Source: a virus. From it: a stretch of 64,000 nucleotides of DNA. The stretch covers positions 7,263 through 71,262 of the IMG/VR virus record IMGVR_UViG_3300025879_001499, one strand, 5' to 3'. Under the pieces are notes generated by a model that saw nothing but the letters and a program-made list of their open reading frames with translations, searched no databases and was not told the DNA's origin. Made by a program: the position numbers and the translations under genes. Every line of letters begins with the position of its first letter. The stretch's first letter is position 1. Positions 7,174 through 48,929 of the stretch are shown here, in pieces.

Positions 7174-7482
7174 TTACTTACCAAATACAATATTCGATAT
7201 AACCTCCTCTACTACATTTCTGTATTTTTCTATTTGTTGTTCCATACTCAATCCAATTAGAGAAATATTACCAATATGAGTATAATCGCCAGTTTCAACA
7301 TTTGAATGTGCTATTGGAAACTGACCTTCTTCTTCCCAATTTGGAGTAGCATATACTACCATATCAGAACTTTCTTTGTACCATTCAATTGTTCCACTTC
7401 GTTCATCCATTGTAGGAGAGTATCCGTATAATGGCTTCATTGATTCAATTTGTTCTGATTGTAAATAAATTTGATTTTTCAT
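7174..7482 (-). CDS. Hypothetical early protein
   Basis: Start MKNQIY after the conserved leader. Confidence 0.6.
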   Translation of the reverse strand: MKNQIYLQSEQIESMKPLYGYSPTMDERSGTIEWYKESSDMVVYATPNWEEEGQFPIAHSNVETGDYTHIGNISLIGLSMEQQIEKYRNVVEEVISNIVFGK

Positions 7483-8809: not shown

Positions 8810-9445
8810 TTATTTCTTTTTCTTTAATCTACTCTTTTCTTTTCTACCTCTATTCTTACTTTCAGATTCGAAACCTACAATCTTACCACCTTTGTGTGAA
8901 GCATCTTTACCATCACCATTTCCGTAAGTACCTTTATCTCTATTGTACTTATTTAATTCAGCTCTATACTTCTTTGCTTTAGTTGATGATTGGAATTTCT
9001 TATACTCAGCTTTGTAATCTCTCTTAGCTTTCTCATCCAATTCAACTCTATCACTTTCGGTGAATTTTATGTTAGATTTTCCACCAAACTTCTCAGCTTC
9101 CTTTTCTCTGAATGCTGGTAAGTATTTGAATCGGGCTCTTTTTAGAACTTTCTTTTTCTTCTTAGCTACCCACTTTTCAATTTGTTTCCTTTGTATGATT
9201 GTTAGTTCCGATTTTGGAACATCTGGAAATAACTTATTCCTAAAGAATTCGTACACATCTCTATAAGCTGCTTTGTATGCTTTCTTATAAAGTTGTTCAC
9301 TACCTTTCTTTCTCAACATTGTACGTTGACGTTTACGTTGAATCAAACGTTGCTTACCAGCCATCGCTCGTTTACGAGCCAACTTCTGCATCGGAGTTAG
9401 AGCTTCCGTTTCAATTTCGGATAATATTTCAGTTAGTTTAATCAT
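8810..9445 (-). CDS. Basic protein with MIKLTEILSE leader and degenerate HNH-like C-terminal module
   Basis: Leader shared with 45012 and 47435; RDYKAEY...GDGKDASH...SKNR. Confidence 0.65.
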   Translation of the reverse strand: MIKLTEILSEIETEALTPMQKLARKRAMAGKQRLIQRKRQRTMLRKKGSEQLYKKAYKAAYRDVYEFFRNKLFPDVPKSELTIIQRKQIEKWVAKKKKKVLKRARFKYLPAFREKEAEKFGGKSNIKFTESDRVELDEKAKRDYKAEYKKFQSSTKAKKYRAELNKYNRDKGTYGNGDGKDASHKGGKIVGFESESKNRGRKEKSRLKKKK

Positions 9446-10005: not shown

Positions 10006-11643
10006 TTATCCCATCAACATTTGTGGTTGTTGAGGTTGGTTATTCTTTTCAGCCTTATCAACCACCATACATTCGGTAGTTAAAATCATACCCACAACTG
10101 AACTTGCGTTTTGTATTGCGGTACGAGTAACCTTCTTAGGGTCAATAATACCATCAGTAAACATATCCACAAATTCTTCACTCTTAGCGTTGTAACCCAA
10201 ATTATTACCTCCTTCAACATCCCAATGGTCAAATAGAGCTTTGATGATATCATCGGAACGTTGTCCAGCATTTTCCAAAATCTGAGTGATTGGTGCTCTC
10301 AATGCTTCTCTAATTACATCAACTCCATCTTCTTCCCATTGGTCCAAATCTGCGGTATTTGCAAATTCGGTTACGGCTTTCAAAGTACGAAGTAGAGCGA
10401 TACCACCACCTTCAACAACACCTTCTTCAATTGCCGATTTGGTAGCTTGAAGTGCATCATCTACTCTATCTTTCTTTTCCTTCAACTCTACCTCAGAACC
10501 AGCTCCGATGTAAAGAACTGCAACTCCACCAGCTAACTTAGCCAATCTCTCTTGCATCTTTTCCTTTTCGTAATCTGATTGCGAATCTTCAATTAGAGTT
10601 TTAATTTGTTGAACTCTCTCAGCGATTTCTTCACTTTCACCAGCTCCGTTTACCAAAGTAGTGTTATCCTTAGATACGATAACTTTCTCAGCTACACCCA
10701 ACATATCCAATGTTGCATCTTCTAACTTCATACCCACTTCAGGTTGGATGAATGTACCACCAGTTACCACAGCGATATCTTTCATAATCTCTTTCTTTCT
10801 ATCACCGAAAGCTGGTGCTTTAACTGCACATACATTAAGAGCTCCTCTGAGTTTGTTTACTACTAATGTACCTAACACTTCACCTTCCACATCATCAGCG
10901 ATAATCACTAATGGTTTTGAGGTTTGAGCAACACCTTCCAATAGAGTAAGGATATCGTTCATATTTGAGATTCTACCATCGTATAATAAGATGTAAGGAT
11001 TCTCTAACTCAGCCTGCATCTTCTCTTGGTTGGTAGCGAAGTGAGTTGAAAGGTATCCCTTATCAAACTGCATACCATCTACTACCTCCATATAGGTTTG
11101 CATACCTTTGGATTCTTCAACAGTAATCACACCATCTTTTCCAACTTTCTCAAACGCATCAGCGATAAGTTTACCGATGTTCTCATCACCATTTGCTGAT
11201 ACTGTTGCGATTTGTTCTACCTTATCACCAACTTTGATTGCTTGGTTTGATAGTTCGTTTACAATAATATCCACTGCCTTATCCATACCTCTTTTGAGGA
11301 ATACTGGATTTGTACCAGCTTCTACCATTTCAAAACCTTTCTTAGCGATAGCTTGTGCTAAGACTGTTGCTGTTGTTGTACCATCACCAGCAGAATCGGC
11401 TGTTCGTTGTGATACATCCTTTACCAATTGTGCTCCCATATTAAGGTATGGATTTTCCAAATGGATTTCCTTTGCTACACTCACACCATCTTTGGTAATG
11501 TGTGGTTGACCTGGTCCTTTTTGGAGTAGAACATTTCTACCCATCGGTCCAAGTGTTACTTTTACTGCATCCGCTAGGATATCTAATCCGGTTTTCAGAG
11601 CTTCTCTTGCTTCTGAATTGAACTTCAATTGTTTACTTGCCAT
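10006..11643 (-). CDS. groEL: Chaperonin GroEL
   Basis: VTLGPMGRNV, ITKDGVSVAKEI, GDGTTTAT, KAPAFGD, ERLAKLAGGVAV. Confidence 0.98.
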   Translation of the reverse strand: MASKQLKFNSEAREALKTGLDILADAVKVTLGPMGRNVLLQKGPGQPHITKDGVSVAKEIHLENPYLNMGAQLVKDVSQRTADSAGDGTTTATVLAQAIAKKGFEMVEAGTNPVFLKRGMDKAVDIIVNELSNQAIKVGDKVEQIATVSANGDENIGKLIADAFEKVGKDGVITVEESKGMQTYMEVVDGMQFDKGYLSTHFATNQEKMQAELENPYILLYDGRISNMNDILTLLEGVAQTSKPLVIIADDVEGEVLGTLVVNKLRGALNVCAVKAPAFGDRKKEIMKDIAVVTGGTFIQPEVGMKLEDATLDMLGVAEKVIVSKDNTTLVNGAGESEEIAERVQQIKTLIEDSQSDYEKEKMQERLAKLAGGVAVLYIGAGSEVELKEKKDRVDDALQATKSAIEEGVVEGGGIALLRTLKAVTEFANTADLDQWEEDGVDVIREALRAPITQILENAGQRSDDIIKALFDHWDVEGGNNLGYNAKSEEFVDMFTDGIIDPKKVTRTAIQNASSVVGMILTTECMVVDKAEKNNQPQQPQMLMG

Positions 11644-11646
11644 AAC

Positions 11647-11937
11647 TTATACTATCATTAAAATTTCTGATTCTCTTACTAAGAAGTAATCCTCACCATC
11701 CAATCGAACCTTCTGTCCACTTCCATTGTTGATAAGAACTTTATTACCTACTTCTACACTTAATTTAATTAGTTCACCATTACCACCAATGAATCCATCG
11801 GATACTGAAACTACTTCAGCGGTTTGAATGGTTTGAGTGGATTGATTTAAAATAATACCACCAGTTGATTTTTTCTCAGATACCTCTTCTAATTTAAGAA
11901 GAACCCTATCTGCAAGGGGTTTGCCATAAACTACCAT
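11647..11937 (-). CDS. groES: Co-chaperonin GroES
   Basis: KPLADRVL, STGGIIL mobile loop, VRESEIL; adjacent to groEL. Confidence 0.95.
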   Translation of the reverse strand: MVVYGKPLADRVLLKLEEVSEKKSTGGIILNQSTQTIQTAEVVSVSDGFIGGNGELIKLSVEVGNKVLINNGSGQKVRLDGEDYFLVRESEILMIV

Positions 11938-37236: not shown

Positions 37237-37803
37237 TTAATATTCATATTCTTTTTTGGGTCCTGTCAAATTCCCATTTATAAGGAATGAACAATTGAAA
37301 CACAACATTCTGAGGTTATCATATTTGTGATTTTTTCTATCACCATCTAAGAAATCCAATACCAATGGAACTCGGAAATCGGTTACCCTTCTTTCTTCAA
37401 ATCCACAATTATTACACTTCTCCAACATATACCCATTGTTCAATAATCTCTTCTTTAGCTTCCACACCGGATACTCAGGGTGTTTACCAGCTAAGATATC
37501 ATCTAAACCATGAGCTAATGTATTTGGGTTTGTTCCTTTTCTGATTCCAATACCATGTGGGTTTTTCAAATCATCAAATATACCATACTCCTTAGCGTAC
37601 TTCTTATAAGTGTTGTATGATACTCCCAACATCCTTGCAGCCTCAGCAGCAGAACGTGCTTTTTGTTGTACATCCTTTATCTCAGATTCCATCAATGGTC
37701 TAGCACCCAATCCCCTTTTAGTTCTATTTTTAGGGGCTTGTGATAAATCAGTTGTTGGGTCATATTGGGGAAATAAAGATTCCCCATTTGTAACATCTTC
37801 CAT
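37237..37803 (-). CDS. HTH plus Zn-binding HNH-like protein
   Basis: SAAEAARMLGVSYNTYKKY; CNNCG...LDFLDGDRKN...NLRMLCFNC (the usual catalytic His reads F). Confidence 0.75.
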   Translation of the reverse strand: MEDVTNGESLFPQYDPTTDLSQAPKNRTKRGLGARPLMESEIKDVQQKARSAAEAARMLGVSYNTYKKYAKEYGIFDDLKNPHGIGIRKGTNPNTLAHGLDDILAGKHPEYPVWKLKKRLLNNGYMLEKCNNCGFEERRVTDFRVPLVLDFLDGDRKNHKYDNLRMLCFNCSFLINGNLTGPKKEYEY

Positions 37804-39038: not shown

Positions 39039-40250
39039 TTAGTTAATAGCATATTTAGCTTCATTATCATCCCAATCTTTTTTAGACATATAACCAAATG
39101 ATTCAACACCTTTAATGGTTAACATCCTATCCGTATTTTTGTTTTTAAACATATCTGCACCACGTTTTGATGCATGTACTTTTATTAATTTTTTACCCCT
39201 TCTAGTATCAACGTAACTAACATACTCATTGTTAGATTCATCTACCGATTCTTTCATATTTGAGGTAATTGATTCAGGTGCGTTATCTTTAACCCATCCA
39301 AACAATTTATCTTTCCAAATTTTTTCTGGGAAAATACCACCCTTAGCTTTCTTAACAGGTAGTGAAAGGAAACCCTTTACTTTACCTTTAATCGTTCTAC
39401 CCTCATCATCAGTATAGAATACAGTATTCTCAGGGTTGTTTAGAATAACATCTACTCTACCATTCATTCCTTTTGGAAGTGCTTTAGTTATCAATCCCCA
39501 TATTGTGTTAGAAGCACCTTCATGTGTTTTTAAAAGGATATCTTCAGGTACCATCCTAGCTCTACTCTTATTATTTACCATTGCGGTAACGTAGTTAGTA
39601 AGAACCCAAGTTAAGTGAATGTTTTCAGCTTTATATCCAGCGTTCTTTAACATAGGAAGTACTTTAGTAATATCAGTTACATCCTTTGCCGTAATATCAA
39701 ATAAGATATTTGGAAGTGTTTCTGGGTTATCTTTACCAGTTAATAAGTTAGCCAATGAATTATCTTTGATACCCATTGCTTTAACTAAGATATGAAGAGC
39801 GTATACGTGGTTTGGGTTCTTTAGATTTAAATTTTGTAATTTATACCCATCACTTTCAATTTTGTTTATCAAATCTAAATCCTTTGGTTTGATATTTTTA
39901 CCATATTTTTTAATGATAGTTTTAATATCCAATTTACCCAGCCTATTTAGTACCTGAAGTTGTTTCTTCATTTCATCCACATCTCTAATTTTAAAAGATG
40001 CCGAATCTACAAAGTTTTTTATAGCGAATCCTTTACCACTACCAGCTCCACCAGCCATAAAAACGATTTGACCATATGGTTTACGATTACCATAGGTAAT
40101 CAACTTTTCATTTAATATCTCTTCTGTTATTTCTTCGAAAATCATAATTTCATTTTTTCTCTTTTTCTTTCCTGCACAATGTGCCTTTTGACTAAATCCT
40201 TTTGGGTTAGAACAATCTATTGATTTCTTATATTTCTTACTCCAAGTCAT
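39039..40250 (-). CDS. Zeta-toxin-like P-loop kinase with extra N- and C-terminal modules
   Basis: MAGGAGSGKG, DVD, ILFD, RARMVPE...H; linkers EEITEEILNE and KESVDESNNE. Confidence 0.7.
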   Translation of the reverse strand: MTWSKKYKKSIDCSNPKGFSQKAHCAGKKKRKNEIMIFEEITEEILNEKLITYGNRKPYGQIVFMAGGAGSGKGFAIKNFVDSASFKIRDVDEMKKQLQVLNRLGKLDIKTIIKKYGKNIKPKDLDLINKIESDGYKLQNLNLKNPNHVYALHILVKAMGIKDNSLANLLTGKDNPETLPNILFDITAKDVTDITKVLPMLKNAGYKAENIHLTWVLTNYVTAMVNNKSRARMVPEDILLKTHEGASNTIWGLITKALPKGMNGRVDVILNNPENTVFYTDDEGRTIKGKVKGFLSLPVKKAKGGIFPEKIWKDKLFGWVKDNAPESITSNMKESVDESNNEYVSYVDTRRGKKLIKVHASKRGADMFKNKNTDRMLTIKGVESFGYMSKKDWDDNEAKYAIN

Positions 40251-40285: not shown

Positions 40286-41884
40286 TTATTTTGTGGTGAT
40301 TTTTACACCACCTTGGAAGAATCCATTTGGTACATTCTGAATTGTTGTTGGTTTATCATTTGTATTTTTATTAAACAATACATTTGGTGTACCACCCAAT
40401 AAGCTTCTTCTATCAGTCCAATCATCTGCATTTGATGATGTGTAAATAGCATCACCAGATAAACTTTCTAAGGATGCCTTTATAACCTCAGGCTTAGAAC
40501 CAGGATTTTGTTGTAATAACAAAGCAGCCATACCAGCAACTTGAGGAGCTGCCATAGATGTTCCACCAATATTACATTGACGATATGCATTATCAAAGTT
40601 ATAAGGTGCATCGGCAAACTTATTTGTATTTGAAGTACAACTCATAATATTGGTTCCAGCAGCATAGATATCAACACCAGGTCCACATTCCGATGATTGA
40701 ACTTTTTGGTCTTTTGTTGCTGAGTTAGCAGTTGAATCTATATTACCAACCATTATTGCTCTATCTGAATATGGGGATGACCCTCTATGATAATAACGAG
40801 TACCAACATTAGTTACAACAAAATTATCATAATCATCACCACCAGGTATATCTATTTTATTACCTCTATTACCAGCGGCAATAGTTACTACAATACCAGC
40901 ATCAATCAATTCCTCTACATCAGTATCAACCGATGCTATTCTTGTATTGGATACGAAATTTCTACCAGCGTTTGCACCACTATTATATACTAAACCATAA
41001 TTAGATTCTCTATAAGATGAACTACTGGTTGTATTTGAATCTGTATAGGATGTTCCTCTATAAGTTAATGAAGTTACAGAATCAAAATAAGTTCCATATC
41101 CCCAACTCATATTTACCACAGTTGGTCTTTTATATCCAGTATCAGATTGAATTGGTTTATTGTTGTGCCAACCCTTAATGACATCAAATGCATCGGATAT
41201 AGAAATACCAGTACCACTATCACTACTACCTTCCAATCCATTTACTTTTACGAAGTAAACAGCAGCACCTTTAGCTACTCCATGATTCAAGCCAGCAGCG
41301 ATGCCAGCTACGTGAGTCCCATGCCCATCTAAATCTCTATTGTGATTTGCATCTTGAGTTCCACTTACCCCACTTAAATTGTACCAATCAATTGTTAGTG
41401 CTCTCTCAACACCATCAGTTCCTTTAAATTCAGGGTGGTCAAACTGTAATCCACTATCTTGAATTACAATATCCACACCACTACCATCTAAATTATAAGT
41501 ATAATCTTCGGATGTAGATGTACTACTACCATAGTTGTTAGTTTTGGATTTATGTCTTATCAATCCCCAATTTAAAAATGCACCACTATCAGATGTGGTT
41601 TTAGTAAAATTTCCAGTTTGAGTTACTCTTGGTTCGATGAAAATATCATCTCTAAATTCAGGTGGTATTTCAACAGCCATAACTCTTTCATCTTGTCTTA
41701 TTAGTTCAACCTCTTCTTCTGAAAGAGTGTACCAAGTTTGACGTGGCGAGTTTGGTCTAAGATTTGGAGAATCAACTCTACGATTAGGGATATATAGTTT
41801 ACCCCCATCGTTTTCGTTTTCCATATCATCCCAAAAAGATTGATAATTTACACCTTTGTGTAATATAACGTTGTATGTTTCCAT
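40286..41884 (-). CDS. Subtilisin-like S8 serine protease
   Basis: IVIQDSG, GHGTHVAG, AAGN and GTSMAAP triad motifs. Confidence 0.93.
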   Translation of the reverse strand: METYNVILHKGVNYQSFWDDMENENDGGKLYIPNRRVDSPNLRPNSPRQTWYTLSEEEVELIRQDERVMAVEIPPEFRDDIFIEPRVTQTGNFTKTTSDSGAFLNWGLIRHKSKTNNYGSSTSTSEDYTYNLDGSGVDIVIQDSGLQFDHPEFKGTDGVERALTIDWYNLSGVSGTQDANHNRDLDGHGTHVAGIAAGLNHGVAKGAAVYFVKVNGLEGSSDSGTGISISDAFDVIKGWHNNKPIQSDTGYKRPTVVNMSWGYGTYFDSVTSLTYRGTSYTDSNTTSSSSYRESNYGLVYNSGANAGRNFVSNTRIASVDTDVEELIDAGIVVTIAAGNRGNKIDIPGGDDYDNFVVTNVGTRYYHRGSSPYSDRAIMVGNIDSTANSATKDQKVQSSECGPGVDIYAAGTNIMSCTSNTNKFADAPYNFDNAYRQCNIGGTSMAAPQVAGMAALLLQQNPGSKPEVIKASLESLSGDAIYTSSNADDWTDRRSLLGGTPNVLFNKNTNDKPTTIQNVPNGFFQGGVKITTK

Positions 41885-44598: not shown

Positions 44599-45012
44599 TT
44601 ACAATCTACCCCACTCCGAAATACTTTCTTTGAGTGGTTTCATACCACCCTTAACTCTGAGTGTATTCAATTGTTTAATTACCTCTTTTTGTTTTTGAGA
44701 GTTCGGTATTGTTTTCAAAGCTTGAGTCATTAACTTATACATCTCAGCTTTCTCAGATGATGATAATGATTCGTTCATCTCTCTAGCATACATCTTCATC
44801 TTAACATCCATATCAACAAACCTCACTTTGATGTTTTGTTGTTTGTAGAAACGATTAAGTGTTCTTACCAAATCACTAATTACCGATTTTACCTTCTCTT
44901 TATCATTCTTATCCGTAACCCAAAAGAACTCTTGTGGAAAGAGTTCTCTAACGATGTTTGCAATCGATATGGTTAGGGATGATTCGTTTAATATATCAGT
45001 TAGCTTAATCAT
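44599..45012 (-). CDS. Putative head-internal protein with MIKLTDILNE leader
   Basis: Leader plus internal EMNES and LKESISE. Confidence 0.6.
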   Translation of the reverse strand: MIKLTDILNESSLTISIANIVRELFPQEFFWVTDKNDKEKVKSVISDLVRTLNRFYKQQNIKVRFVDMDVKMKMYAREMNESLSSSEKAEMYKLMTQALKTIPNSQKQKEVIKQLNTLRVKGGMKPLKESISEWGRL

Positions 45013-45013
45013 A

Positions 45014-46876
45014 TTAGTTGATGTATGCATTTAACTCATATCCGTTCTTCATTCCGTAAACCTGAATGTGTAACATCTTTCTTTGTGGTTTACCATTTTT
45101 AAGAAGTTCTAACGATACTCTTGTAGTTTTACCCACCGATGGTCTCTTTGAGTTCATTCCAACTTTGGTGAACATCTCATCATCCTCTATTTCGTATCCT
45201 TTCTTTTTAGCGTATACTTCTGCTGCCTCAATTGCATGAGTGTAAGATTTGTGATACACATCATCCGATTCGTTTACTGATTCATATTTAATCATATCAG
45301 TATTAAACTTTTCAAAATTCTTCTTTGCCCATTTTACGGCAGATTCGTAAGAATTAAATTTAATTCTGTCTTGTTTGAATCCTTTTTTCTTGTTTAAGAA
45401 ATCAATGTAAACTTTTTCTTCGTTTACTAATTCAAACAGTTCATCTCTTGTAAGTTTTCTACCGAATGCCTTTTCAAATGCTTTAATCATTTTTACTTCA
45501 GTACTAGCATTTCTTCCAAGTAGTTTTAAAACTCTTTTTAATTCATCTTCAGAAAAATTATAGTTTACTTTTTCTTCGTTTACTGATTCATTTACCGAAT
45601 ATGAAAGGAATCCTCTATCACCAACGTTTACTTTAATTTTACCCTTAGATAGTTTTTCAACTTCTCTTTTAGTTTTCTGTGGGTCTTGATGTGCATGATA
45701 AAAGTTATTCTTAATCTTAGAAGATGAACCAGGTTTTTGATTAAAGTTTTTTACCAAATCACCACCATCATACCCAACTCCACCAATATTAACTTTATTA
45801 TGACCAGAGTTATAATAAACATCATATTTTGGCTTAGCATCTAATATTACCTGTGTAAGGTATTTGTAATCTGCCTTTTCGTTTAATGATTCATTAAATC
45901 CTTCAATATCCCATTGAATTCTTTGTAATGGATTATCACCTCTAAAGTTTTTCTTTACCCAATCAATAAGTCCAGGTTCATTCTTAGCATTTTGAGCCAT
46001 ATCGAATGCGTTTCTAGCACCCCCATTACTTGCCATACTATCCAACCATTGTTCATATTTCGTTTGAGTCCATCTTACTTTCTTAACTACTTTCTTATGT
46101 GGACCATCTCCTAATTTTGAAGTAGCTGCAGCGTAAGAACCTGGAAGGAATACACCAACATCCTTACCATTACCATATTTTATTTTTTTTCTGAATAACC
46201 TTAGTGAATATTCTCCACTTTCTTTTTGTTTAGGTTTTGAAACTTCGCCTTGTCTTTTACCTAATTCAATTTTCTTTTCTTCAGCAGTTTTGGGATTTAT
46301 TTCAAAATGTAAAGATTTTACTAAATCACCAATACCATCAAATTTACCTTCGTTTACTGATTCATCAATTTCAAATTTAGAATATTTGTTTAAATCATTT
46401 AAACTTTTTAATTCAACTCGTTTACCGTTTGAATCCAATCCATAGATAGTAGCGGTATATTTACCCATTCCATCGGAACGTTTACCTTTTAGTTTTTGTT
46501 TTAATTCAGCACCAGCTCTTCGTTTGTTGATAGATGAATTAAATTCGTTTACTGATTCTAACTCAACACCTTCATATATTGATTTAAGATATTTAAGGAA
46601 GTCTTTATCACTCTTCATATCTCTAAAATCACTATTTGAAAATACTTTCTTTATAAAATCCCTAATATCTTTAGAACTTTGCTTGATTAAATCAAGTTCA
46701 GCTCCTAAACTTTCACTAACTTCATCTATGATTTTAACTGGAACTAAGTGTGTACCAATTTTAGAATCGTATGCCATTATGTAATGAATACCATCCTTAC
46801 CCATAAGTTTGAAATCCTTATGTTTCTTATTCCACTCTTTTTTAGTGATTGTATGTTTAATCTTAGGTTTAGCCAT
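45014..46876 (-). CDS. Modular putative polyprotein with ESVNE linkers
   Basis: Six E-[SL]-[VL]-N-E linkers separating unrelated Lys-rich modules. Confidence 0.75.
   Translation of the reverse strand: MAKPKIKHTITKKEWNKKHKDFKLMGKDGIHYIMAYDSKIGTHLVPVKIIDEVSESLGAELDLIKQSSKDIRDFIKKVFSNSDFRDMKSDKDFLKYLKSIYEGVELESVNEFNSSINKRRAGAELKQKLKGKRSDGMGKYTATIYGLDSNGKRVELKSLNDLNKYSKFEIDESVNEGKFDGIGDLVKSLHFEINPKTAEEKKIELGKRQGEVSKPKQKESGEYSLRLFRKKIKYGNGKDVGVFLPGSYAAATSKLGDGPHKKVVKKVRWTQTKYEQWLDSMASNGGARNAFDMAQNAKNEPGLIDWVKKNFRGDNPLQRIQWDIEGFNESLNEKADYKYLTQVILDAKPKYDVYYNSGHNKVNIGGVGYDGGDLVKNFNQKPGSSSKIKNNFYHAHQDPQKTKREVEKLSKGKIKVNVGDRGFLSYSVNESVNEEKVNYNFSEDELKRVLKLLGRNASTEVKMIKAFEKAFGRKLTRDELFELVNEEKVYIDFLNKKKGFKQDRIKFNSYESAVKWAKKNFEKFNTDMIKYESVNESDDVYHKSYTHAIEAAEVYAKKKGYEIEDDEMFTKVGMNSKRPSVGKTTRVSLELLKNGKPQRKMLHIQVYGMKNGYELNAYIN
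45269..46558 (-). repeat. In-frame 15-bp repeat GAATCAGTAAACGAA, six copies
   Basis: Exact at 45269, 45575, 46349 and 46544; one mismatch at 45419 and 45878. Confidence 0.9.
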
Positions 46877-47183: not shown

Positions 47184-47435
47184 TTAGGATACATCCATTG
47201 CATCATTATGAGTAAAGGTAATACCCTTCTTCTTCAAAGTTTTAGCAAGCTTTTCCATATCATCATAATCGTATCTATATGGTAACTCAATACCATATCT
47301 ATCTTCAAAATCCGGTTTGTACATCTTCTTACCATCCACAACTATCTTATATAGTTTACCACTACGGTCTAAATAAGTTGCATCAATCTTCTTTGGATTT
47401 TTTGCTTCTGAAAGTAATTCTTTTAGTTTAATCAT
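47184..47435 (-). CDS. Putative head-internal protein with MIKLKELLSE leader
   Basis: Leader motif. Confidence 0.6.
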   Translation of the reverse strand: MIKLKELLSEAKNPKKIDATYLDRSGKLYKIVVDGKKMYKPDFEDRYGIELPYRYDYDDMEKLAKTLKKKGITFTHNDAMDVS

Positions 47436-48030: not shown

Positions 48031-48357
48031 TTATTTAGAGTTAGAATTCAAAATTTGATTGTTTAATTCCAACAATCTTCGATTCTCCATCTCTAAATAC
48101 TTTACTTTGATTGTCAACTCAGCAACATCCTTAGTTAGTTCCAATATCTTCTCTCTAAGTTCATCCTTTTCTTTTGAACTTTGTTGAAGTAATGATTCTA
48201 ATCTATCGATTCTCTTAGCACAATCATCTTTGATATAATCCTCCTCATCCTTTTTATCTTGCGCACGCTTCTCATAGTATCTCCAAGCCCCAGCGGACCC
48301 CAATACTGTGATAAGTGTAATAATTACTGCGTAGATTGATTCTGGATTCATTATCAT
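48031..48357 (-). CDS. TM plus coiled-coil protein
   Basis: N-terminal TM helix followed by heptads. Confidence 0.65.
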   Translation of the reverse strand: MIMNPESIYAVIITLITVLGSAGAWRYYEKRAQDKKDEEDYIKDDCAKRIDRLESLLQQSSKEKDELREKILELTKDVAELTIKVKYLEMENRRLLELNNQILNSNSK

Positions 48358-48929
48358 TTTTTGTTTTGTAAGATACTATCTGATTTTTCCATCTCAGCTC
48401 TAAGGTAGTGTTTAGCACCAACTATATAATCTTTTGCCTTTACGATTTTAGTTTGCCACCAATGTGGTAAATCTATCTCAGCGTTCATTTCATCAAATTC
48501 AGCCATCATTTCACCCAATTCTTCAGCATATCTTTCAATAATACTCAAATCAGCTCTTAACATACCTGGCTCATTATCTTGATGTCCTAAATCTACATCT
48601 TCGAAAACGGATGTATCTAACTCAGTATCGGTTGACATCTGAGATACATACTTATCTTCCATATCCATTAACTGAGATAGATTCTTTTGTCTATCTTTTA
48701 TTTTCTTAGTCAAATCCTTTAATACTTTAAGAATTTGCTCTTTTTTCTTTGGGTCTTTTTCTGTTTTATAAGGTTGTACAGCCTTTTTTCTATCAGCTTC
48801 CAACTTTGCGATTTCTTTTTTAACCGCTTCTATTTTCAGAAATAACTTAGGTATTCCTTCGTTGATTAATTGCTCAACAGTGAACCTTCCTTCGTATTTT
48901 TCAACCAAATGTTCTTCTAATAATTTCAT
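48354..48929 (-). CDS. Two-module putative head protein
   Basis: HLVE, LINE and SVFE junctions; DNEPGM...LPHWWQTKI..AKDY module. Confidence 0.6.
   Translation of the reverse strand: MKLLEEHLVEKYEGRFTVEQLINEGIPKLFLKIEAVKKEIAKLEADRKKAVQPYKTEKDPKKKEQILKVLKDLTKKIKDRQKNLSQLMDMEDKYVSQMSTDTELDTSVFEDVDLGHQDNEPGMLRADLSIIERYAEELGEMMAEFDEMNAEIDLPHWWQTKIVKAKDYIVGAKHYLRAEMEKSDSILQNKK

Follow-up and report, generated by a model that had tools for sequence, protein, structure and literature searches.

The stretch of 64,000 nucleotides (nt) analysed here, referred to as the window, covers positions 7,263 to 71,262 of the virus record IMGVR_UViG_3300025879_001499 and carries on its minus strand an open reading frame (ORF) of 620 amino acids (aa), in which seven units are connected by six joints of the form E-x-[VL]-N-E (Table 1). 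The joints are encoded by exact or nearly exact copies of one 15-base sequence, GAATCAGTAAACGAA, and comparison of sequences from related phages shows that units enter, drop out and are replaced at this joint. We consider it probable, though with clear reserve, that the gene encodes a series of complete small basic proteins, arranged head to tail and of the T4 internal-protein kind, which would be cut at the joints and would recombine there.

The polyprotein and its 15-base joint

Within the polyprotein ORF, GAATCAGTAAACGAA occurs in four exact copies and two copies with one mismatch, all in frame, with spacings of 150, 156, 303, 471 and 195 bp; the joint peptides read ESVNE, ESLNE or ELVNE. 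With up to two mismatches allowed, the 64-kb window contains seven matches, against a mean of 0.21 in shuffled sequences, none of 100 of which reaches seven; the seventh match (37533, two mismatches) is unrelated. A second SVNE (45587-45598), coded TCG GTA AAT GAA, precedes joint 4. The seven pieces of the polyprotein are basic and Lys-rich (isoelectric point 8.4-9.7, K 13-22%) and fall by piece clustering into seven different module families. A preliminary description of the window, made from the sequence alone, had reported six in-frame repeats at these spacings, seven dissimilar Lys-rich modules and an adjacent, differently coded SVNE; motif scan, shuffles, clustering and a reading of the ORF and its sequence confirm this observation in all details. 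Pfam and PHROGs scans of the 620-aa polyprotein matched no family.

Over about 9 kb, contig L155 matches the window at 98-99% identity, with one clean 195-bp indel within the polyprotein gene. The alignment blocks stop at window positions 46544 and 46363, where two exact motif copies have their outer edges, and in the contig they share exactly 15 bases, which are the 15-mer. The two protein forms are present on 12 and 5 contigs. Gene order at the locus is conserved: orf191, orf108, a HAD-like gene, (orf83), orf95, the polyprotein gene, (orf143) and a fibre-like gene. For a wider analysis of homology breaks, 91 sequences were compared (the window region, 80 metagenome loci and 10 viral loci), a break being defined as lying between collinear blocks of at least 90% identity. 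The set contains 139 breaks with 556 ends, of which 217 are no more than 3 nt away from a motif-like 15-mer, this zone amounting to 1.0% of the sequence. Some of the loci are redundant, and these counts represent comparisons, not independent events. Twenty-one break events with all four ends at motifs reduce to seven distinct clean indels (195, 201, 225, 240, 252, 465 and 570 bp, all multiples of 3) and four distinct replacements. A further comparison was made on the contigs of four other sequencing runs, none of them the likely source of the window. Here, 14 of the 24 loose ends listed (besides 69 others) lie within 3 nt of a motif copy, the corresponding zone covering 6% of the stretch. The same 195 bases are skipped in one contig, in which 46348 is joined to 46544; its shorter side, 27 letters long, is flagged as weak. 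The preliminary description had proposed the 15-mer as a recombination point and a comparison of orthologous loci as its check; the comparison supports the recombination point: modules are gained, lost, replaced and reordered exactly there, and units change at the repeat even between genomes that are 98-99% identical.

The polyprotein belongs to a large family of mosaic proteins. At least 919 relatives were found at E<=1e-3 in a large protein collection (7999 candidates scored), the exact 15-mer is present in at least 131 viral contigs, and the stretch examined is present in sequencing runs of 13 studies. Among the 120 relatives listed, lengths range from 342 to 1077 aa, query coverage from 14% to 100% and identity from 41 to 100%; most bear the joint motif at varying spacings (ESVNE 192, ESINE 32, EGVNE 27 and EGINE 12 occurrences). 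Splitting the relatives at E-x-[VIL]-N-E and clustering the pieces, with 70% coverage required for a module family, resulted in 107 piece families, and query units recur elsewhere beside other neighbours. The 53 non-redundant proteins with at least two motifs have 50 architectures. P0002, for instance, is the query minus unit 2, and P0004 has the order head, new unit, unit 2, unit 5, new unit, unit 3, unit 7. The conserved 52-aa head of the family, which reads MAKPKIKHTITKKEWNKKHKDF..., forms a separate unit ended by ESVNE in P0018 and P0055. In 461 joint pairs with only the left unit in common, identity is 0.6-0.8 before the motif and 0.33, 0.32 and 0.16 at the three residues that follow it, and 639 pairs with only the right unit in common show the mirror-image step across the five residues; owing to the 70% coverage rule the step is partly built in, its sharpness is not. 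In Pfam searches with 35 relatives, nine match at E<=0.001, eight of them above the Pfam cut-off (DUF5661, DUF5824, DUF3008, UPF0227), while the ninth has two matches that are both below it.

Unit 3, modelled alone with 33 relatives, forms a confident all-alpha structure with a predicted local distance difference test score (pLDDT) of 86.3 and a predicted template modelling score (pTM) of 0.64. The model of the whole polyprotein has a pLDDT of 52.7 and a pTM of 0.22, with all six joints in segments below 50; it was built on a poor alignment of shuffled proteins and can thus be called compatible with separate units at most. Foldseek searches with unit 3 against PDB and BFVD returned no match at E<=1e-3, VIA-align of unit 3 with 48,161 chains gave a best Z of 4.8, inside the uninformative range of the tool, and Foldseek with the low-confidence model of the whole polyprotein returned nothing. 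A search of the ESM Atlas with unit 7 returned unnamed viral clusters only. In a tblastn search of cultured phages only the C-terminal unit of the polyprotein matched, in four Melnitz phages, where unit 7 also terminates gene 20, and a megablast search with 10 kb returned nothing. The comparisons show each unit to behave as an independently evolving piece, and its model suggests that unit 3 is also an independent folding unit.

Joints are conserved at the nucleotide level. Codon use was compared at loci found through peptide words that exclude the motif (the metagenome set plus the window). Here, 82 of 112 distinct ESVNE joints (73%) have the 15-mer without any change, where 4.3% would be predicted if they followed the codon use of their ORFs; the joint serine is AGT in none of the 112 (29% background) and the joint valine GTT in 14 (44% background). 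After joints with similar flanks are collapsed, the exact 15-mer is the majority form in 71 of 98 clusters, and it is found in 18 of 31 clusters under the strictest linkage (single linkage, either flank). These figures rule out codon bias as the cause of the repeat identity and uphold the earlier claim that wobble positions are conserved in the repeat. Nearly all 15-mers inside ORFs of at least 60 aa of viral contigs read in the ESVNE frame (171 of 175, at least 131 loci), and conservation stops at the 15-base borders, except that G is the base directly behind them in 82% of joint clusters. Codon identity between motif copies whose flanks are unrelated is 0.84 versus 0.54 by chance. All five ESLNE joints and the most frequent ESINE form (9 of 15 joints) derive from the 15-mer by a change of one base, which argues for copying of one DNA sequence. 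As far as sequence comparison goes, the data show that the joints derive from one DNA sequence by copying; that selection fixes the bases does not follow from them. A rarer joint form, GAATCAGTTAATGAA, occurs in 9 of the 112 ESVNE joints (metagenome loci L155-L234) and may mark a sub-lineage with its own canonical sequence.

Stand-alone units, leaders and the prohead protease

Unit 3 has 130 short relatives at E<=1e-3, and many of the 48 matches of 150-200 aa that start with Met are stand-alone forms of this unit. The stand-alone proteins are 161-190 aa long and carry cleavable-looking leaders of the types MKHIxTFExFxNESLNE and MIKLKDLxxE (e.g. MKHIHTFESFINESLNE and MIKLKDLISE). In the alignment, the polyprotein unit starts right behind the last ...NE of the stand-alone leader, and the stand-alone form ends ...DIEAYA where the polyprotein continues GFNESLNE. 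Unit 7 has 542 short relatives; 46 of the 120 listed are 92-107 aa long and 38 of these 46 begin with MIKL, for example MIKLKSLLKE followed by ATDFETYHKSYT.... The proposal in the preliminary description that modules be sought behind MIKL leaders was thus fruitful, units 3 and 7 both being found as stand-alone proteins behind MIKL- or MKHI-type leaders. The five-residue joint coincides with the leader end of the stand-alone forms. Some fused ORFs retain an entire leader between units (…ENTMIKLTDLLGE…, …KIKLTDLVKE…), so linkers range from a full leader to a bare ESVNE. The window itself contains three small genes with near-identical leaders (8810-9445, 44599-45012 and 47184-47435), similar in form to the T4 capsid targeting sequence. 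The one directly downstream of the polyprotein is listed as ORF 44599-45030 and probably begins at an internal MIKL; parts of its product are C-terminal polyprotein pieces in other contigs.

In T4, gp21 cuts after Glu in L/I-X-E and removes the 10-aa capsid targeting sequence at the start of the internal proteins, in which the early residues serve for targeting and residues 8 and 10 govern processing (PMC9026906). The joint motif matches this hydrophobic-X-Glu rule. Peptidase_S77 and Gp23 are each present in all four related records with motif-bearing ORFs that were searched, and in all four, motif-bearing and leader-bearing proteins adjoin the T4-type prohead protease. In the head clusters of these records leader-bearing proteins are located between protease and scaffold (MKKLKDLLKE/S, MIKLKNLLNE/K, MKLKDLLNE/S, the slash marking here and below the predicted site); some of them hold one to three ESVNE joints, with common units in different orders, and some of the polyproteins there begin with such a leader. 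The C-terminal region of the protease contains VINE/S in two of the four records and NESV in the other two, the scaffold reads TINE/V in all four, and the N-terminus of the major capsid protein contains ILNE/S or LLNE/S in two. Capsid-protein maturation sites are predicted in relatives as LVSE/A, LVKE/A and LLDE/A, placed with the help of the conserved ...LVRRIF segment and of the T4 site. Directly behind the motif stands A, G or S in 90 of 125 distinct joints, and in 82 of the 125 the residue two before the first Glu is hydrophobic, so that a second site (e.g. F-N-E/S) often precedes the first. The joint is probably a cleavage site of the prohead protease, a prediction consistent with everything seen; capsid packaging, injection and an effector or anti-defence activity of the units would follow by extrapolation from the T4 internal proteins.

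According to the capsid protein, the nearest cultured phages are Microcystis phage Mel-JY01 and Flavobacterium phage immuto, with 53-56% identity. Gene 191 of the latter (immuto35A_191, Flavobacterium phage vB_FspM_immuto) contains NESVNE and KESLNE 45 aa apart, and with its two joints makes the cleavage prediction testable at the bench. A 191-aa protein of the window (48354-48929, minus strand) has a segment …GHQDNEP…PHWWQ.K… in common with the 842-aa immuto35A_191 (L237 5963-8488); judged by this similarity, the segment is another unit, free in one phage and fused in another. In related phages, the head clusters also encode a small basic protein between the internal-protein genes and the scaffold (L151 7796-8077, L236 9185-9412), and its counterpart in Mel-JY01 is annotated as ribosomal protein S21.

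Readings of the array

If the gene is an array of internal proteins, the prohead protease (Peptidase_S77) would cut after the last Glu of each ESVNE once the prohead has assembled and would thereby free the units. The freed units would remain with the DNA and enter the host at infection, as T4 Ip1-3 do, and might then act early, e.g. against host defences. Gain, loss and exchange of units would come about when identical 15-mers recombine by short homology, in mixed infections or in replication. One promoter and one targeting head would then serve an array of delivered proteins that can be expanded and changes quickly.

Several observations weigh against this explanation or parts of it. The record from which the window is taken is a 71-kb fragment (CheckV about 40%) in which neither prohead protease nor Gp23 was found. 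The window polyprotein starts with MAKPKIKHTITKK... (MAKPKIKH...) and has no N-terminal MIKL-type leader, and because the T4 targeting residues sit early in the leader, ESVNE alone is not expected to target a protein to the prohead. ESVNE is also much more constrained than the protease rule, so something besides protease specificity keeps the motif. The units have no known fold or family in Pfam, PHROGs, Foldseek and VIA-align, which makes their effector function a guess. As to exchange at the joints, 27% of 4458 BLAST alignment ends lie within 8 aa of a motif versus 8.7% at random, an enrichment of about threefold, and many alignment breaks fall away from the motif. Synonymous sites of homologous flanks, moreover, are unsaturated, their codon identity at 70-90% aa identity amounting to 0.81, compared with 0.84 between motif copies that have unrelated flanks; recent common descent of the joints, with no direct selection on the DNA, can explain much of their identity. 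A subtilase gene (Peptidase_S8, E 1.5e-32) is situated two genes downstream of the polyprotein.

The missing leader and the excess constraint on the motif would both fit an uncleaved multi-domain protein, arranged as beads on a string like the polyvalent proteins of phages and plasmids, in which ESVNE would be the translated scar, or a flexible linker, left by a joining site at the DNA level. Polyvalent proteins may contain 2-15 domains, and packaging without processing is known for some of them (PMC5512222). We nevertheless regard this as rather unlikely, since the joint coincides with the leader end of the stand-alone forms and some fused forms use a whole leader as linker, the motif contains hydrophobic-X-Glu with a small residue next in most joints, and motif-bearing proteins are encoded beside the prohead protease. 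The joints might instead be cut outside the prohead by another protease, the phage subtilase or a host enzyme, the units being cytoplasmic or secreted. The polyprotein of the window lies outside any head-gene cluster, and in G003 the S8 orthologue adjoins an ESVNE protein; that adjacency, however, follows the conserved order of fibre-like gene, S8 gene and P-loop gene. Peptidase_S8 was found in one of five related records searched (two of three CheckV-complete records are without it), against four of four for Peptidase_S77, and cleavage after Glu with a hydrophobic residue two before is the rule of S77 and atypical for subtilases. Cleavage outside the prohead is very improbable in our estimate. 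The subtilase as a general processing enzyme is an unlikely candidate, as it was not found in four of the five related records.

Two further readings concern the DNA sequence of the joint. Selection on mRNA or decoding could keep the copies identical, and breaks could cluster at them since selection removes recombinants that cut through units. The codons GAA, TCA, GTA and AAC are expected to pair fully with the usual anticodons, and motif codons exceed the synonymous codons of the flanks in identity in each similarity bin (0.79 versus 0.64 and 0.94 versus 0.81, from few and non-independent pairs). The effect, 73% against 4.3%, is however far above known accuracy effects; breaks fall inside 15-17 shared bases and linker lengths do not vary; and most amino acid variants derive from the 15-mer by one base change, instead of drawing freely on the Ile or Leu codons. 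Selection of this kind is highly unlikely to be the explanation. A bolder form of the array reading, which we hold to be doubtful, takes the 15-nt joint for a selected recombination signal, the in-frame counterpart of integron attC or PeSL, and the gene for a dedicated cassette array. If the joint were such a signal, the array would capture any leader-bearing internal-protein gene, perhaps by way of a motif-directed nuclease or of modules excised as circles, the phage population would draw on a common pool of injected proteins swapped unit by unit, and the same five residues would supply the release site of each captured unit.

The reading as an array of internal proteins, cut and exchanged at its joints, has several consequences. 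T4 internal proteins are the classic case of proteins injected with phage DNA, and the locus suggests that a large, mostly uncultured marine T4-like group has turned them into an array; the nearest cultured relatives of the array-bearing phages infect Flavobacterium and Microcystis. The fixed joint would let single units be added, dropped or exchanged with the frame intact, and would be a clear natural case of one short sequence serving as recombination point and processing site. Hundreds of unit families would become candidates for early-acting or counter-defence proteins, and the arrangement suggests a simple design rule for loading several cargo proteins per phage head.

Other features of the window and comparison with known systems

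The window has a G+C content of 33.5%, nearly all long ORFs are on the minus strand, and PHROGs matches comprise GroEL, GroES, T4-type clamp loader subunits, thymidylate synthase, glycosyltransferases and HNH endonucleases; it is part of a large T4-like phage. A second motif-bearing protein (39039-40250) consists of a DUF3008-like N-terminus, a P-loop GGAGSGKG with a weak Pfam match to Zeta_toxin, the joint ESVDE and a short C-terminal unit. Its orthologue in G003 is 823 aa long and continues after the P-loop unit with the exact 15-mer and three more units, which indicates that enzyme-like units also enter arrays. The phage has GroEL (545 aa, E 2.4e-168) and GroES genes of its own (10006-11937, minus strand), and two HNH or intron-like homing endonuclease genes are located at 1864-2544 and 37237-37803 (minus strand). 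The T4 late-promoter octamer TATAAATA is not enriched (14 found, 13.2 expected) and gives no timing information.

Table 1. Coordinates of the polyprotein gene, its units and joints and of other genes of the window
Feature	Coordinates	Strand	Residues or length	Remarks
Polyprotein ORF	45014-46876	minus	620 aa	seven units, six E-x-[VL]-N-E joints; stop codon 45014-45016
Unit 1	46544-46876	minus	1-111	first ~52 aa are the conserved head of the polyprotein family
Joint 1	46544-46558	minus	107-111	exact 15-mer, ESVNE; one edge of the 195-bp indel
Unit 2	46349-46543	minus	112-176 (65 aa plus joint)	missing from contig L155 and P0002
Joint 2	46349-46363	minus	172-176	exact 15-mer, ESVNE; other edge of the 195-bp indel
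Unit 3	45878-46348	minus	177-333 (157 aa)	all-alpha model; positions vary elsewhere; stand-alone forms
Joint 3	45878-45892	minus	329-333	one mismatch, GAATCATTAAACGAA, ESLNE; motif scan
Unit 4	45575-45877	minus	334-434	piece clustering
Joint 4	45575-45589	minus	430-434	exact 15-mer, ESVNE; motif scan
Unit 5	45419-45574	minus	435-486	piece clustering
Joint 5	45419-45433	minus	482-486	one mismatch, GAATTAGTAAACGAA, ELVNE; motif scan
Unit 6	45269-45418	minus	487-536	piece clustering
Joint 6	45269-45283	minus	532-536	exact 15-mer, ESVNE; motif scan
Unit 7	45017-45268	minus	537-620 (84 aa)	common C-terminal unit; stand-alone forms
Small gene	44599-45012	minus		leader MIKLTDILNE, then S; downstream of the polyprotein; likely start 45012
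Small gene	47184-47435	minus	83 aa	leader MIKLKELLSE, then A; upstream of the polyprotein
Small gene	8810-9445	minus		leader MIKLTEILSE; third leader-bearing gene of the window
P-loop protein	39039-40250	minus	403 aa	second motif-bearing protein; ESVDE at 39237-39251 (GAATCGGTAGATGAA)
Subtilase (Peptidase_S8)	40286-41884	minus		E 1.5e-32; directly downstream of an 883-aa fibre-like protein

Searches of the full-text literature, with most subscription journals outside their coverage, returned no account of such arrays. The combination of whole internal-protein units in one frame with a nucleotide-invariant joint, at once exchange point and likely release site, was not found described there.

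The T-even internal proteins have only the capsid targeting sequence in common (PMC3012670), and T4 Ip1, Ip2 and Ip3 are inhibitors of different GmrSD restriction enzymes, one enzyme each (PMC12373910). As with these proteins, the units are small and basic, belong to a T4-type phage and have, in the stand-alone forms and in neighbouring genes, a short N-terminal leader ending in hydrophobic-X-Glu; they are unrelated apart from the leader and highly variable between related phages, and S77 is present in related records. The T4 leader differs from the leaders found here (MIKLxDLLxE or MKHIxTFExFxNESLNE). Unlike the T4 internal proteins, many units follow one another in a single frame, the last five leader residues being all that is kept between them, and the joint is conserved at the nucleotide level.

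Giant phages such as phiKZ, 201phi2-1 and SPN3US likewise have head-internal or ejection proteins in which an S77-related protease cuts at several X-X-Glu sites (PMC9026906, PMC5694885). Their cuts remove propeptides from single proteins, and the accessible portions of these papers make no mention of arrays in which a fixed joint connects interchangeable mature units.

Polyvalent proteins (Iyer et al. 2017, PMC5512222) also combine many unrelated domains in one polypeptide, in very many architectures, with delivery together with the DNA and release by proteolysis being proposed. In number of parts the polyprotein, with its seven units and 50 architectures among 53 relatives, falls within their range of 2-15 domains. 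Polyvalent proteins contain recognisable DNA- or RNA-targeting, modifying and anti-restriction domains and often a zincin-like peptidase of their own (PMC5512222), whereas no Pfam family was found in the query and, above the cut-off, only DUF5661, DUF5824, DUF3008 and UPF0227 in the 35 relatives searched. The units described here are, furthermore, 50-160 aa long, connected by one fixed joint of 5 aa or 15 nt, and predicted to be released by a separate head protease.

As in PeSL cassettes (PMC2839356) and in the glycine-rich motifs of the adhesin gp38 (PMC3157838), short conserved sequences flank variable segments, and the differences between related genomes start and stop at copies of a short conserved DNA motif. 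PeSLs are intergenic promoter-terminator cassettes (PMC2839356), whereas the joint is an in-frame coding 15-mer for ESVNE; the gp38 motifs make up the structural core of a single folded domain, in an order that does not change (PMC3157838), whereas the units of the polyprotein reorder. Unlike either of them, the joint separates whole proteins and probably doubles as a protease site.

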